Of a stretch of DNA of 64,000 nucleotides, positions 9,189 through 61,045 are shown piece by piece (within the stretch, counting starts at the first letter, position 1; every line of letters starts with the position of its first letter). The translations under genes were made by a program, and so were the position numbers. Source of the stretch: Escherichia coli O157:H7 (lineage in GTDB: Bacteria > Pseudomonadota > Gammaproteobacteria > Enterobacterales > Enterobacteriaceae); the NCBI RefSeq assembly GCF_013167455.1, contig NZ_CP038328.1, one strand, 5' to 3'. The notes under the pieces are model-generated. The model worked only from the letters and a program-made list of their open reading frames with translations. It was not told the origin of the DNA and did not search any database.

Positions 9189-11975
9189 TTAGTGCGCCTG
9201 ATCCCAGTTTTCGCCACTCCCCACTTCCACCAGCAACGGCACATCCAGACGGGTACAGTTTTCCATCAGTTGATGAATCTGCTTCGCAACGGCATCGACA
9301 TCATCTCTATGAACTTCAAATACCAGTTCATCGTGTACCTGCATGATCATACGTACACGCGGTTGCTCAGCCTGTAACCACGCATCAACGGCAATCATCG
9401 CCCGTTTGATAATGTCGGCGGCGGTTCCCTGCATTGGCGCGTTAATGGCTGCACGTTCAGCCGCTGCACGACGAGCACCATTGCTGGATTTGATATCCGG
9501 CAGATACAGACGGCGTCCGTCCAGCGTTTCAACGTAGCCCTGCTCTTTCGCCTGAGCACGGGTGCGTTCCATATACTCCAGCACGCCAGGGTAGCGTTCG
9601 AAGTAAAGGTCCATGTACTTCTGCGCTTCTTTACGTGGAATGTTCAATTGCCGCGCCAGACCGAAAGCACTCATGCCATAAATCAGACCAAAGTTGATCG
9701 CTTTCGCGCTACGGCGTTGCTCGCTGGTGACGGTTTCCAGTGGCAAACCAAACACTTCTGCCGCCGTTGCCCGGTGGATATCTTTTCCTTCCGCGAATGC
9801 GGTCAGCAAGCCTTTGTCACGCGAGAGATGCGCCATAATGCGCAGTTCAATCTGCGAGTAGTCCGCTGAGACAATCACATAATCCTCTGGCGCAATAAAC
9901 GCCTGGCGGATACGACGACCTTCTTCGTTACGCACCGGAATGTTTTGCAGGTTAGGATCGGTTGACGATAAACGTCCCGTTGCAGTTACAGCCTGGTGAT
10001 AAGAGGTATGCACACGCCCGGTTTTCGGGTTGATCATCAGCGGCAGCTTGTCGGTGTAAGTCGATTTCAGCTTCGCCAGACCACGATACTCCAGAATCAC
10101 TTTTGGCAACGGATAGTCCAGCGCCAGTTCTTCCAGTACCTCTTCCGACGTTGACGGCGCGCCACCCGGCGTTTTCTTCAGCGGTTTAATGCCCTGTTTT
10201 TCAAACAGAATGGTTTGTAACTGCTTGGTGGAAGAAAGGTTAAATTCCTCACCTGCAATTTCATGCGCTTTCTTTTCCAGCTCAGCCAGACGAAGGGTGA
10301 GCTCTTCAGAATGATTGTGCAGCACTTTCGGATCGATCTTCACACCGTTACGTTCAATGCGTGAAAGTACTGGCACCAGCGGCATTTCGATATTCTCGAA
10401 GACGTTCAACGGCCCTTTGTGTTTTTGCAGATCCGGCCACATTTTCAGATGCAACTGCAAGGTGACATCAGCATCTTCGGCGGCGTAACGTCCGGCCTCT
10501 TCGAGGGCAATCTGGTTAAAAGTCAGTTGATTTTTGCCTTTACCCGCAATCTCTTCAAAAGTGATGGTTTTGTGCTTCAACCAACGTTCCGCGAGGCTGT
10601 CCATATCGTGACGCCCGGCAACGCTATTGAGAATGTAGGACTCCAGCATGGTATCAAACGCAATCCCACGCAGCTCAATGCCGTAATTCGCCAGAATACC
10701 GCGATCGTATTTCAGGTTTTGCCCGACCTTCAGCGCCTTTTCATCTTCCAGCAGCGGTTTTAGCAACTCGAGTGCACGCTCGCGAGAGATTTGATCGGGC
10801 GCATCAAGATAATCATGAGCAACCGGAATATATGCCGCTACGCCTGGCTCGATAGCAAAAGAAAGCCCGACCAGGTTAGCTGAGATGTTATCAAGGCTGT
10901 CGGTTTCGGTATCAAATGCAAATACCGGCGCTTTTTCCAGCTTCGCAATCCACGCTTTCAGTGTTTCTTCATCAAGGATGGTGACGTAGTTGTCATAAGA
11001 AATCACCGTTGCCGTCACTTCTGGTGCTTCGTCTGCAACACTGGTTTCCTGTGGCTTCGCGGCTGGTTTTGCCCCTTTGGCCTGTAACCATTTGCCCGCT
11101 TCGACATCAGCAGTCCAGCGTTTGAACTCATACTTTTTGAACAGCCCCAACAACTCTTCCGCTGCCGGTTGCTGCACTTCCAGTTGTTCACAGGTCAGCT
11201 CCAGTTCAACGTCGGTTTTAATCGTCGCCAGCTGGTATGAGAGATAAGCAACTTCTTTGTTTTGCTCGAGCTTCGCTGCCATTGTTTTCGCGCCACGGAA
11301 GCTCAACCCAGCAATTTTTTCTGGCTCGGCATACAGCGTATCCAGCCCGCCAAGACCTTGCAGCAATGCCTGCGCGGTTTTTTCACCGACGCCCGGTACG
11401 CCAGGAATGTTATCAGAGGAGTCACCCATCAGCGCCAGGAAATCGATGATCAGTTCTGGCGGCACGCCGTACTTATTCACCACCTCTTCCGGTCCGAGGA
11501 TGGTATTCGTCATGGTGTTGATAAGCGTAATATTTGGCGTCACCAGCTGCGCCATATCTTTATCGCCAGTGCTGATCAGCACCGGACGCCCGGCTTTTTC
11601 GGCTTCGCGCGCCAGAGTACCGATAACGTCGTCCGCTTCTACGCCAGAAACCGCCAGCAGCGGCAGTCCCATCGCTTTAACCATCGCGTGCAAGGGTTCG
11701 ATTTGTGCTCGCAGATCGTCCGGCATTGGCGGGCGATGTGATTTGTAATGTTCAAACAGTTCATCACGAAAGGTTTTTCCCTTGGCGTCAAAGACCACCG
11801 CTGCATGCGTCGGTTTATATTGCATGATCAGACTGCGCAGCATGTTGAGGACACCATACATCGCACCGGTCGGCTCGCCTGCGCTGTTAGTCAGCGGGGG
11901 AAACGCGTGATATGCGCGATAAAGATAAGATGAACCATCTACAAGGATAAGTGGATTTTGGGGGATCTGAACCAT
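9189..11975 (-). CDS. polA: DNA polymerase I
   Basis: 928-aa [45 protein letters not shown]... Confidence 0.97.
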
Positions 11976-55338: not shown

Positions 55339-55653
55339 TTATCTTTTTTTGAAAAAAATTAAGATAAGAAAAAGAACAATATTTGTTACAGGAAATCCCC
55401 CCAAAACTCCCCAGTACTTACTCCATCCTAGAGACATCGTATATCTACCAAGGATTTGACAAAACCCAAAACTTAACCCTATACCTATACTTCTTAAATT
55501 TAATGTCGTAGTCAGGCTTAAAATAAATAGAACAAGGATGGTAATAGCCCACCACAATAACCATGCCTTAACAAAATCAGATTTTTTGCTGTAAGGTTCT
55601 TTACCCAAGAACAACTGCCAAAAGTTACCATTTCCCATATAGAATCCATTCAC
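55339..55653 (-). CDS. Hypothetical small membrane protein (104 aa, about 3 predicted TM helices)
   Basis: Open frame in very AT-rich DNA where stops are frequent by chance; hydrophobic segments AWLLWWAITILVLFILSL, IGIGLSFGFCQILG, VTNIVLFLILIFF; no family assigned. Confidence 0.55.
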   Translation of the reverse strand: MNGFYMGNGNFWQLFLGKEPYSKKSDFVKAWLLWWAITILVLFILSLTTTLNLRSIGIGLSFGFCQILGRYTMSLGWSKYWGVLGGFPVTNIVLFLILIFFKKR

Positions 55654-56264: not shown

Positions 56265-56409
56265 TTACAGCCAGTTCTTGCGCTTAAAGTACAGATACGG
56301 TGCCAGGCCCGCGAGGATCATAAAGATAATCGCGCCTGGGTAGCCGAAACTCCACTTCAGTTCTGGCATAAACTCAAAGTTCATGCCATAGCTGGAGGCA
56401 ATCGGCGTA
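56265..56409 (-). repeat. Duplicated 3' end of corA (gene fragment; direct repeat of 57976-58120)
   Basis: About 145 bp nearly identical to the genuine corA 3' end; encodes ...[44 protein letters not shown] in frame; identity decays toward the inner edge. Confidence 0.9.
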
Positions 56410-56597
56410 GGAAAAAGTTTCCTAATCGGTAAATTCAATATTTTGTTATTAACAATGAGCAAGACCAATCATTAACGACGTTCTCTTCAGAGATGTAATG
56501 AAAAAATGTGAAGTGTACTTCTTTTTTAAATATTTTTTTACCCTAGCATTTGTTCTCAAATTGATATTGAGCTTAAATATAACCAAGGAAAATGTAA

Positions 56598-57446
56598 ATG
56601 AATAACACATTACTTCCATCAATTAATATTCCCTGTACACTTTTCGAAACTATTAGTTTATTTGATAATTATTCTGCTGATGATATGCAATATGGTGATA
56701 TGGTAGAACAAGATTTTCTCTCACTCGGCCTAAGCGATATCTCAGCAAAAGTTGATCCTTACAGACTTATTAAATACCATTTCCCTGGCCCAGGTTCTAT
56801 TAATGTTGCTTTTAGTGCCTCAAGTTCCGGAACAAAAATATCACAACGTGAATGCACTGATATTTTATTTGCAGAAATGAAAGAACTAGCAAAAATGTTT
56901 TCCTTTTTTGGACAATATAAAACACTTATCGAAGATCTGATTGAACATTTTAGATATGGAAATGGCAGCAATTTTCATAGCCAACAATTAAATTTATCTT
57001 TTCATGAAAAAATAAATAAATATGGTTATAATAGTCCAATACGAATAATCAAAGAATGTATCGAAAATGGCATTAATTCAACTCCCTCGACAGGATACCA
57101 ACCTCTTATCCTGCAAAGCATTAAAACCAAATTACTTTCATCAAGACTAAATAAATTTAATGACTTCGAGGACAGTTTTAATGGCTTAGGAATCAGTGTT
57201 CATGATATTTCAGCTCAAAAAATATCTCTTTTAAGTTTTCAAAAATACGCTATAGGATGGAGTGCAACAATTCATTTTGTAGCACAGGACCACTTCGGTC
57301 TTGATGTAACTGATATCAAAAACAAGACTTACAGCAAATATAGATTTTTTCGCATATGGTTCTTTTTACAACGGCATAAAGACTTTGCTTTCAAACCTTT
57401 TTTCACCAATTTTAACACTATCGAAAGAATCGAAAATTATCTATGA
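56598..57446 (+). CDS. Hypothetical protein, 282 aa, no signal peptide, no recognised family
   Basis: 849-nt ORF in about 30% GC DNA (estimated by eye), which is improbable by chance; AAGGA SD 9 nt upstream of ATG; stop overlaps next ORF start (ATGA). Confidence 0.8.
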   Translation: MNNTLLPSINIPCTLFETISLFDNYSADDMQYGDMVEQDFLSLGLSDISAKVDPYRLIKYHFPGPGSINVAFSASSSGTKISQRECTDILFAEMKELAKMFSFFGQYKTLIEDLIEHFRYGNGSNFHSQQLNLSFHEKINKYGYNSPIRIIKECIENGINSTPSTGYQPLILQSIKTKLLSSRLNKFNDFEDSFNGLGISVHDISAQKISLLSFQKYAIGWSATIHFVAQDHFGLDVTDIKNKTYSKYRFFRIWFFLQRHKDFAFKPFFTNFNTIERIENYL

Positions 57447-57934
57447 AAAGCAAACTCCAAAAAATTATATTATGTTTATTTCTTCTATGCTGCATCTATA
57501 ATTTATGGACATTGCGTCCTGTACAGATTTTGTATACATACTCTGATGCTGGCAATTCAGTCTTTCTGGTCGTTGATCATCTGCCATGGACTGACAGCGA
57601 TAAAATAAATTGGTATCTGAAGCATCAGAATGAAATTAAAAATCAACATCCCCTACCAGAAGGTAGTTGGCATACCTGGTATGTCATTGATATCGGTAAT
57701 GGCTTCACTGACTATAAAAAATATATCGAAGGGCCGTATGAAGATCTCTACTGTTTCCCGACAATTAAGAGCAATGATAATTGCATCACGAAAAATTACT
57801 TAATGGTTATTAATGAATACCCTTATCGTAACACTCATATTGGTATTAACGATTTTACTGAGTATCAATTAACACAAGAAAATAAAATAGAGCAAGTTTT
57901 CAATCCGCATAACTTTAAAAAAGACAATTTTTAG
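57443..57934 (+). CDS. Hypothetical membrane-anchored or secreted protein, 163 aa
   Basis: N-terminal K-rich then hydrophobic stretch (MKSKLQKIILCLFLLCCIYNLWTL) typical of signal peptide/anchor; translationally coupled to upstream ORF; ends 41 nt before convergent corA stop. Confidence 0.75.
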   Translation: MKSKLQKIILCLFLLCCIYNLWTLRPVQILYTYSDAGNSVFLVVDHLPWTDSDKINWYLKHQNEIKNQHPLPEGSWHTWYVIDIGNGFTDYKKYIEGPYEDLYCFPTIKSNDNCITKNYLMVINEYPYRNTHIGINDFTEYQLTQENKIEQVFNPHNFKKDNF

Positions 57935-57975
57935 AAATAAGCCGGATAAAAAAATAGCTTTATCCGGCACTCATA

Positions 57976-58926
57976 TTACAACCAGTTCTTCCGCTTAAAG
58001 TACAGATACGGTGCCAGGCCCGCGAGGATCATAAAGATAATCGCGCCTGGGTAGCCGAAACTCCACTTCAGTTCTGGCATAAACTCAAAGTTCATCCCGT
58101 AGCTGGAAGCAACCAGCGTTGGCGGCAGGAACACGACGGATACCACCGAGAAAATTTTGATGATGCGGTTCTGCTCGATGTTGATAAAACCCATTGCCGC
58201 CTGCATCAGGAAGTTCACCTTCTGGAACAGGGATTCGTTATGCGGCAGCAGGGATTCGATATCTCGCAGGATTTCACGCGCCTGCTCCAGTTGCCCACCC
58301 GGTAAGCGTGCTTTACGTACCAGGAAGTTGAGCGCGCGCTGGGTATCCATCAGACACAGGCGCACTTTCCAGCCGATATCTTCCAGTTCCGCCAGAGTGG
58401 AGAGCGCCTCGTCGTACTCATCGCCCTGATGCCCTTCCATAATCACCCGGCTCAATTGCTCCAGGTCGCTATAGATATTTTCAATTTCATCTGCCAACTG
58501 TTCGATTTTGGTTTCGAACAGATCCAGCAGCAACTCGTAGGCGTTACCGTCTACCATCGACTGGCTACGGGCACGCATACGATACAGACGAAAAGCGGGC
58601 AGTTCACGCTCACGCAGAGTAAACAGACGACCATCACGGATGGTAAATGCCACAGTGGAGTTACCGGCGTGATCTTCCGCATCTTCAAAGAAGAAGAAGG
58701 AGTGAATATGCAGGCCGTCATCGTCTTCAAAGAAACGTGCCGATGCTTCGATGTCTTCCAGTTCCGGGCGGGTTGCCAGGCTCTGGCCAAGTTCAGATTG
58801 TACGCGCAGTCGCTCGTCGTCGTCCGGTTCGACAAGATCAATCCATACTGCATTTACAAGGGGTTGTGACTCTTCGACTTCCAGCCGGGTCAGTCGGTTA
58901 TTTTCCAGTTGAAATGCGCTCAGCAT
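57976..58926 (-). CDS. corA: Magnesium/cobalt transporter CorA
   Basis: [43 protein letters not shown]... with [10 protein letters not shown] signature near C-terminus; 316 aa. Confidence 0.96.
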
Positions 58927-59295
58927 GACCGGGACTCCCAATGCTTAAAATATCGGACAGTTCGGTGGGCACACAGAAACAAATTGGGTTTCAGACCATT
59001 AAACAGCCTGACTCAGCGCGACGGGAAAAATTGAGGTCGCTGACAACCGCTAAGGCTATCAGCAAAAAGGGATAGCCTTAGGAGTTGATCCTGGATGACA
59101 GGATAGTGAGCCAGTATCTACTGGGTGTGTCCAAGGCGAATGTCCTCTTAGAGTGATCGTGCGCGCATGTTACGCCAGCAAAATTTTGCCGTCAACACGC
59201 AACAGAACACCACAGAACAATAGTTGAACTTCGCGCTTTTTGGTACTCGTCAAGGTCGCTAACAGGATAAAAAAATCCCACATCCAGGACCTATA

Positions 59296-60142: not shown

Positions 60143-61045
60143 ATGAAAAAAACGCTCGCAACGTTATTTTTATTAACGTGTCTGGGATCATCATCCGCTT
60201 ATGCGGATAACGCTTTGATTTTACAAACTGATTTTAGCCTGAAAGATGGTGCCGTCTCGGCGATGAAAGGGGTCGCATTCGGTGTTGACCATAATCTTAA
60301 AATATTTGATTTAACACACGAAATTCCACCGTATAACATCTGGGAAGGCGCTTACCGCCTGTATCAGACCGCCAGTTACTGGCCGCAAGGTTCGGTATTT
60401 GTCAGTGTGGTCGATCCGGGCGTAGGCACTGACCGTAAATCGATAGTGCTGAAAACCAAAAACGGTCAATACTTCGTTTCACCGGATAACGGTACGCTCA
60501 CTTTGGTGGCGGAATCGCTGGGTATTGAGAGCGTCCGGGAAATCGACGAAAAAGCTAACCGCCTGAAAGGTTCTGAAAAGTCATATACCTTCCACGGTCG
60601 TGACGTGTATGCCTACACCGGTGCACGTCTGGCTTCCGGGGCGATCACGTTCGAGCAGGTGGGGCCTGAGCTTCCTGCAAAGGTTGTCGAACTTTCTTAT
60701 CAGAAAGCAAAAGCAACAAAAGGTGAAGTGAAGGGCAATATCCCGATTCTCGATATTCAGTACGGCAACGTCTGGAGCAATATCAGCGACGAGTTGCTGA
60801 ATCAGGCGGGGATCAAACTCAACGACACGTTGTGTGTGACCATTTCCGAAGGTTCCCGGCAAAAATACGCAGGGAAAATGCCGTATGTCGCAAGCTTCGG
60901 CGATGTGCCGGAAGGACAGCCGATGGTGTATCTGAACAGCTTATTGAATGTTTCCGTGGCGCTGAATATGGATAATTTCGCGCAGAAACATCAGGTTGCG
61001 TCTGGTGCTGACTGGAATATTGATGTGAAGAAATGTGATAAGTAA
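60143..61045 (+). CDS. SAM hydroxide adenosyltransferase-like (DUF62 / chlorinase-fluorinase fold) protein with N-terminal signal peptide
   Basis: 300 aa; signal peptide MKKTLATLFLLTCLGSSSAYA then family motifs QTDFSLKDGAVSAMKGV, VVDPGVGTDRKS, FVSPDNGTLTLV, YGNVWSNISDELLNQAGI (recalled from fluorinase/SalL-type enzymes). Confidence 0.75.
   Translation: MKKTLATLFLLTCLGSSSAYADNALILQTDFSLKDGAVSAMKGVAFGVDHNLKIFDLTHEIPPYNIWEGAYRLYQTASYWPQGSVFVSVVDPGVGTDRKSIVLKTKNGQYFVSPDNGTLTLVAESLGIESVREIDEKANRLKGSEKSYTFHGRDVYAYTGARLASGAITFEQVGPELPAKVVELSYQKAKATKGEVKGNIPILDIQYGNVWSNISDELLNQAGIKLNDTLCVTISEGSRQKYAGKMPYVASFGDVPEGQPMVYLNSLLNVSVALNMDNFAQKHQVASGADWNIDVKKCDK

Follow-up and report, generated by a model that had tools for sequence, protein, structure and literature searches.

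Two adjacent genes, at positions 56598-57446 and 57443-57934 of the 64-kb stretch of Escherichia coli O157:H7 DNA analysed here (the window), probably constitute an orphan DUF3289/DUF943 module of antibacterial toxin and immunity protein, which belongs to the same family as the BtpeA-CTD/BtpiA and T6EC1/T6IC1 pairs and would act by the mechanism proposed below. This reading is carried by the family membership of the proteins, by the matches of both to the chains of a solved complex, by the strict pairing of the two genes among their relatives, and by the fusion of some of these relatives to T6SS and cell-wall domains. Since 2024, the family has been characterised experimentally as a T6SS effector-immunity pair (PMC11148199, PMC12135965). 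The genes of the window, ECs_4747 and ECs_5766 in the Sakai annotation, are an unstudied copy of this known type of weapon and not a new type. The coordinates of the features discussed are collected in Table 1.

Table 1. Features of the rarD-corA region of the window, and loci of other genomes that carry tandem arrays of the module
Feature	Position	Strand	Remarks
Small AT-rich membrane-protein ORF, 99 aa, ECs_4748	55339-55653	-	Hypothetical or membrane protein in RefSeq/Sakai
Small AT-rich membrane-protein ORF, 128 aa	55854-56240	+	Without annotation in the RefSeq/Sakai records inspected
corA 3'-end remnant, 147 bp (last 48 codons and stop)	56265..56411	-	Direct repeat D1 of 57976-58122; left edge of the acquired segment
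AT-rich non-coding leader, presumed promoter region	56412..56597	+	Proximal ~150 bp common to other E. coli alleles (KE55 comparison)
Shine-Dalgarno sequence AAGGA	56585..56589	+	8 nt 5' of the ATG of the predicted toxin gene; direct sequence reading
Predicted toxin gene, 282 aa, DUF3289 / TIGR03034 (YPO3983)	56598..57446	+	ECs_4747 in O157:H7 Sakai
Predicted immunity gene, 163 aa, DUF943	57443..57934	+	Start overlaps the stop of the predicted toxin gene (ATGA); ECs_5766 in Sakai
GC-rich hairpin between the convergent predicted immunity gene and corA	57941..57968	.	Minus-strand corA terminator according to the terminator scan
Intact corA, convergent with the module	57976..58941	-	Second repeat copy formed by its last 147 bp (57976-58122)
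Loci with tandem DUF3289/DUF943 arrays	L020, L025, L026, L031, L037, L063, L065, L078		

The original prediction held that the long AT-rich frame of the predicted toxin gene is real and not open by chance, and this is borne out. The frame is intact, with the ATG at 56598, the TGA at 57444-57446 and 282 codons, and the probability that a frame of this length stays open by chance at the local base composition is about 2e-10. The dN/dS values of 0.08-0.22, obtained against orthologues from Atlantibacter and Salmonella and against another E. coli allele, indicate that the frame encodes a protein under purifying selection. RefSeq contains the identical frame as WP_001066403.1, a 'DUF3289 family protein', and in the Sakai annotation both ECs_4747 and ECs_5766 are listed as 'hypothetical protein'; elsewhere in RefSeq the two products carry nothing beyond the family names DUF3289 and DUF943. 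A literature search with the Sakai and EDL933 locus tags found no papers on this locus. The GC content of the gene is 31.4% vs about 50-53% in the flanking rarD and corA genes, and the whole AT-rich pocket, which extends from ~55.3 to 58.0 kb, has a GC content of ~33%. The Shine-Dalgarno sequence, rightly called a good one in the original prediction, precedes the gene, and a scan for the sigma-70 consensus found no site in the leader, with a count over the whole region not above that of shuffled sequence. Over its last 24 kb, the window matches many E. coli O157:H7 chromosomes with 100% identity.

No family had been recognised for the protein at the outset, a statement that fails because curated Pfam and NCBIfam models match it over its full length. 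The Pfam search proposed at that time gives DUF3289 (PF11692) with an E-value of 2.1e-84, positions 2-270 of the 272 positions of the model being aligned to residues 10-278 of the 282 residues of the protein, and the TIGR03034 model (YPO3983 family) is covered completely (1-274 of 274) with a score of 439.2 bits vs a cut-off of 156.45. The vague impression that the protein resembles an enterobacterial family of unknown function that pairs with a small membrane protein was right, the family being DUF3289 and its signal-anchored partner DUF943. The expected lack of a signal peptide and of a transmembrane segment agrees with the sequence-level analysis, in which no segment of membrane strength was found in the protein (the highest Kyte-Doolittle mean over 19 residues is 1.2). 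The description 'cytoplasmic protein' holds for the site of synthesis only; the evidence is in favour of a toxin active in the periplasm of other cells.

An alignment of 37 diverse full-length homologues with 22-64% identity (A1) was used to define the conserved residues of the family. D29, F91, H232, F233, G234, D239, W254, L257, Q258, P267 and F268 are invariant in this alignment, H202, D203, D231 and D236 are nearly invariant, and the protein of the window has all of them. The C-terminal aromatic-basic patch, which had been noticed by eye, is real and shows the strongest conservation within the family (FRIWFxLQR...KPF). Judged from the sequences, the conserved cluster of acidic residues and histidines suggests the site of a metal-dependent hydrolase. 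Models of anti-phage defence systems (PADLOC) and PHROGs models gave no matches to the predicted toxin, to the DUF943 protein or to the products of the two small ORFs upstream.

The product of the partner gene belongs to the Pfam family DUF943, 'enterobacterial putative membrane protein' (E-value 2e-26). It contains a single N-terminal hydrophobic helix or anchor (residues ~2-23) followed by an alpha/beta domain that is putatively periplasmic. Two cysteines, C104 and C114, are invariant in the DUF943 family, and their location beyond the membrane anchor fits a disulfide-bonded periplasmic domain. The predicted topology is thus consistent with an immunity protein that sits in the periplasm, where the toxin would act.

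An exhaustive search yielded 472 representative DUF3289 relatives. They come as standalone proteins of ~280 residues, as proteins of ~400-450 residues with an N-terminal extension, and as proteins of 600-1450 residues in which DUF3289 is C-terminal. In a Pfam scan of 33 longer relatives, PAAR was found in nine, the PAAR-like DUF4280 in one and Hcp/TssD in one; the other domains fused in longer relatives are Peptidase_M23, SH3_3, PG_binding_1, LysM, Peptidase_M14 and glycoside hydrolase. Fusions to PAAR, DUF4280 and Hcp, taken together with fusions to peptidoglycan domains, are the signature of a cell-wall-acting T6SS cargo toxin. The PAAR-fused relatives are ~31-39% identical to the protein of the window.

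The neighbourhoods were compared in 71 loci from other Enterobacterales, among them Salmonella, Atlantibacter, Lelliottia, Enterobacter, Trabulsiella, Erwinia, Pantoea, Tatumella, Serratia, Yersinia and Kosakonia. The original prediction had raised the question of whether homologues are always followed by a gene for a small signal-anchored protein, and the answer is clear: the ORF directly 3' of a full-length DUF3289 gene encodes DUF943 in 99 of 100 cases, mostly with a stop-start overlap of 1-17 nt and with an N-terminal transmembrane segment in the product. Clustering of the flanking ORFs showed that no gene families other than DUF3289 and DUF943 are conserved across the 71 loci, and it found no conserved third gene that could serve as adaptor or chaperone. 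The mobile unit is the two-gene module. A phmmer search with 17 T6SS proteins from the one Sakai cluster as probes detected no T6SS gene in the window and, within the 10-kb flanks of the 71 loci, neither a T6SS core gene nor VgrG, Hcp or Rhs.

In many genomes the module forms tandem arrays with up to nine toxin genes, each of which is accompanied by its own divergent immunity gene. Such arrays, with up to nine DUF3289/DUF943 pairs, toxin fragments and surplus immunity genes, were observed in Erwiniaceae and relatives (Tatumella, Rosenbergiella, Pantoea, Erwinia), and one array combines PAAR-DUF3289 genes with four DUF943 genes in an orphan setting. In total, 153 DUF943 ORFs vs 120 DUF3289 ORFs were counted in the other Enterobacterales, which means that orphan immunity genes exist.

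In E. coli, the predicted toxin gene is present in 2646 of the 5426 complete genomes (49%), where it is always chromosomal and usually single-copy, and its alleles fall into two groups, with nucleotide identities of at least 95% and of ~80-90%. The gap between rarD and corA is filled by yigG-yigF, as in K-12, by the module alone, or by the composite arrangement of O157. In this composite arrangement, the two copies of the repeat D1, which are 95% identical and spaced by 1711 bp, bracket the module; the upstream copy is dead and is annotated in RefSeq as a partial CorA pseudogene. The hairpin assigned to corA may also stop the transcript of the module, which arrives from the opposite side. An analogous scar was observed in Atlantibacter subterranea (L004), where a corA' fragment (9271-9513) and a rarD' fragment (9618-9752) lie upstream of the toxin gene, and in Salmonella subspecies arizonae and diarizonae the module occupies the same site. 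The scars in O157 and Atlantibacter and the shared site in Salmonella suggest that the module spreads through recombination in the flanking genes, accompanied by partial duplication of the flanks, and not by means of a mobile element. No genuine mobile-element copies were found in the plasmid and phage collections. Two E. coli 'plasmid' matches proved to be records of 1-4.8 Mb, and the 'phage' matches are Salmonella contigs.

Several other features of this region deserve mention. The two small membrane-protein ORFs are located between rarD and the remnant of corA, where they replace yigG-yigF of K-12, and the longer of them is weakly YigG-like (PRK11371, E-value 5.5e-6), with an N-x-x-x-[KQ]-R-[IL]-R-D-[ST]-G motif recognised by eye. 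At 60143-61045 on the plus strand, between yigE and uvrD, there is a gene for a secreted protein of 300 residues annotated as 'SAM hydrolase/SAM-dependent halogenase family protein'; it is present in O157 and SCU-176 and not in C439 and KE55, and represents a second presence/absence polymorphism near the module. The E. coli arrangement, with a toxin gene of 98% identity, was also seen in two short MAG contigs labelled 'uncultured Alistipes sp.' (L002) and 'uncultured Clostridium sp.' (L003). Both contain the ECs_4748-like ORF, the yigG-like ORF, the corA' remnant and the toxin gene, and L002 also contains corA and yigE; these are almost certainly E. coli contigs that were mis-binned into MAGs.

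Comparison of the O157 allele with that of KE55 (L076, 3167-4015) revealed that all of the 38 amino-acid differences between the two predicted toxins (38/38) are located in residues 1-201, where dS is 0.435. Residues 202-282 are identical at the protein level with a dS of 0.022, and the immunity genes share 98.6% nucleotide identity. The confinement of the differences to residues 1-201 implies a recombination breakpoint within the toxin gene near codon 201. The variable part of the toxin is thus N-terminal, the opposite of what is seen in classical polymorphic toxins. It is conceivable, but in our opinion unlikely, that this reversed polarity means that the variable residues 1-201 determine the spike or tube carrier or the target, or else that lineages with a decayed T6SS, such as O157:H7, export the intact toxin by a new route. 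In the commensal E. coli strain SCU-176 (L075, 3168-4005), the toxin gene is annotated as frameshifted and the DUF943 gene is intact, a case of toxin decay with immunity kept.

For the E. coli module, we infer the delivery of the toxin, its chemistry and its mode of binding, and propose the following mechanism. The toxin of 282 residues, which has no export signal, would be synthesised in the cytoplasm and would presumably be harmless to the producer at this stage because its target is expected to lie in the cell envelope. Where the strain has a functional T6SS, it would be loaded non-covalently on the spike or tube, and injection would take it into the periplasm of a Gram-negative neighbour. 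In the periplasm of the prey it would damage the synthesis or the integrity of the cell wall; relatives cause cell rounding. D29, D34, H202, D203, D231, H232, D236 and D239 likely form a metal-dependent active site, and the chemistry that we favour, though unproven, would be a colicin M-like cleavage of the lipid-linked peptidoglycan precursor. Sister cells would be shielded by the DUF943 protein, the anchor helix of which would hold it in the inner membrane and the disulfide-stabilised periplasmic domain of which would bind and block the incoming toxin.

It is quite possible, although we would not call it probable, that the protein is an envelope toxin without being a lipid II phosphodiesterase of the colicin M kind: it could be another hydrolase of peptidoglycan or of lipid-linked intermediates, or could sequester a target in the periplasm. 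A colicin M-like action on lipid II was proposed by Geller et al., who stated that the mechanism and the T6SS dependence were yet to be shown (PMC11148199). The colicin M family (PF14859) comprises the lipid II-degrading bacteriocins colicin M, PaeM, pectocins M1/M2 and syringacin M. PF14859 was not found in the Pfam scan of the predicted toxin, and neither single-sequence nor profile searches of PDB sequences returned colicin M. A comparison by hhalign of alignment A1 with an alignment of colicin M (A3) gave a probability of 0.1% and an E-value of 0.52, a negative result that is weakened by the shallowness of A3, which contains nine sequences, some of them frameshifted; of the 23 relatives behind the colicin M alignment, most are close or fragmentary. 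The catalytic motif of colicin M, D226-x-Y228-D229-x5-H235-R236, is not kept in the predicted toxin, which has D231-H-F233-G-L-D236-x-x-D239 without the following His-Arg, so that the resemblance of the two motifs, as judged by eye, is partial. The two proteins also differ in the way they would reach their target. The N-terminal 120 residues of colicin M have no counterpart in the predicted toxin, in which no TonB box, no receptor-binding (FhuA) domain and no translocation domain was found, DUF3289 filling the protein. Colicin M relies on receptor-mediated import and DUF3289 relatives on T6SS delivery, and the immunity family of colicin M differs from DUF943.

Cleavage of the precursor remains the chemistry that we favour, and the next step to be considered is delivery. 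The predicted toxin contains none of the known delivery domains (PAAR, MIX, PIX, WHIX or other), and there is no room for one, since the DUF3289 model spans residues 10-278 of 282. A 32-kDa toxin is also large for a cargo of the Hcp lumen. In O157:H7 Sakai, a T6SS cluster lies at aspV, and one of its genes, ECs_0219 (L073, 13971-15382), is annotated as a pseudogene, in line with the reported degeneration of the system. In O157:H7, the T6SS was described as degenerate, with a 28-bp insertion in tssM, a nonsense mutation in vipB and a deletion in clpV, and no killing of K-12 by EHEC was seen in competition (PMC12981562, 2026). An earlier study reported T6SS-dependent secretion in EHEC (PMC5363993). 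The reported degeneration and the lack of K-12 killing make delivery in the O157:H7 strain doubtful.

These circumstances bring up a second alternative, which we regard as somewhat unlikely, namely that in O157:H7 the pair is a defensive cassette or a relic, providing immunity against the DUF3289 toxins of other E. coli strains, with a toxin gene that has not yet decayed. A T6SS that is reported to be degenerate and inactive against K-12 (PMC12981562) and a Sakai cluster in which one gene is an annotated pseudogene are what one would expect under such a scenario, but the secretion described in the earlier EHEC report (PMC5363993) is not. The frameshifted toxin gene next to an intact DUF943 gene in SCU-176 and the excess of DUF943 over DUF3289 ORFs in other Enterobacterales (153 and 120) argue in the same direction, and immunity should be useful given that about half of E. 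coli genomes have the toxin; the O157 toxin ORF itself, however, is intact, keeps all invariant residues and is identical across many O157:H7 genomes. Its dN/dS is well below 1, which likewise speaks against a relic, though this value mostly reflects the history before T6SS decay.

A different route of delivery was also considered. The module could represent a T6SS-independent toxin-immunity system of the bacteriocin kind, released by lysis, with outer-membrane vesicles or through another secretion system, and although we find this very unlikely, the orphan state of all 71 close loci (71/71), where T6SS genes are missing within 10 kb and no adaptor gene is conserved, and the lack of a recognisable delivery domain in the toxin would agree with it. 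No receptor-binding or translocation domain, lysis gene or signal peptide is present, however, and PAAR, DUF4280 and Hcp are found covalently joined to relatives of the protein. Orphan T6SS effectors are, moreover, common in Enterobacterales, and an orphan standalone homologue from Aeromonas undergoes T6SS-dependent secretion (PMC12135965). Finally, we give hardly any credence to the view that the gene encodes a cytoplasmic housekeeping protein next to an unrelated small membrane protein, which would suit a product of 282 residues without signal peptide or transmembrane segment but not its location in a 31% GC island that occurs in only 49% of E. coli genomes and alternates with yigG-yigF, its tandem multi-copy arrays in other genera, the match of both proteins to an effector-immunity crystal complex, or the toxicity of its relatives in the periplasm (PMC11148199).

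The reading as an orphan toxin-immunity module, which we prefer, does not overturn current understanding. Re-annotation of the two hypothetical proteins as a toxin that acts in the periplasm and the corresponding immunity protein would add one more pair to the competition repertoire of E. coli, and the module offers a genetically tractable E. coli model for a family of unproven chemistry. The presence of an intact orphan effector in a pathogen whose T6SS is reportedly decaying bears on the competition of O157:H7 in the bovine and human gut. In the O157:H7 strain itself, the module may serve mainly as immunity or may be a recent relic.

Several characterised systems can be compared with the module of the window. 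It was shown by Geller et al. in 2024 that T6EC1 of Yersinia pseudotuberculosis IP32881, when exported through Tat, is toxic in the periplasm of E. coli and causes rounding of the cells, and that its DUF943 partner rescues them (PMC11148199). T6EC1/T6IC1 is the same Pfam pair, DUF3289 with DUF943, and T6IC1 resembles the predicted immunity protein in having one N-terminal transmembrane helix and a periplasmic body. T6EC1 differs from the predicted toxin in being a specialised fusion to PAAR, with its gene in a T6SS operon, whereas the protein of the window has neither a PAAR domain nor T6SS neighbours. A link between DUF3289 and DUF943 in T6SS loci was also noted in a survey of Klebsiella (PMC12469244). 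The orphan DUF3289 protein of Aeromonas jandaei DSM 7311 (WP_042032936.1) was shown by Fridman et al. in 2025 to be secreted in a T6SS-dependent manner and to belong to a true effector-immunity pair (PMC12135965). Like the predicted toxin, it is encoded away from T6SS genes and, by analogy, provides the best precedent for the function of an orphan copy as a T6SS effector; its immunity protein is different, with 95 residues, a signal peptide along with three transmembrane helices, and is not described as DUF943.

A structural counterpart comes from another phylum. BtpeA-CTD/BtpiA of Bacteroides fragilis is a T6SS effector-immunity complex with structures available as PDB entries 9JDI, 9JG8 and 9JG9 (Li et al. 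2025, Cell Host Microbe 33:1901). BtpeA is a protein of 608 residues with an N-terminal delivery part, is encoded inside the T6SS locus of B. fragilis and needs the adaptor BtapC; the E. coli protein, in contrast, is a bare toxin domain encoded by an orphan gene. H202 of the predicted toxin is replaced by Asn in BtpeA, and DUF943 and BtpiA have no detectable sequence similarity. A sequence profile of DUF3289 finds the BtpeA structure with an E-value of 1.4e-29, and DHFGLDxxD, FRxWFxLQ and KPF are kept between the toxins across phyla. Both proteins of the window give fold matches to the two chains of the solved BtpeA-CTD/BtpiA complex (9JDI); the predicted toxin and immunity protein of the window thus each have a counterpart in a single effector-immunity complex of known structure.
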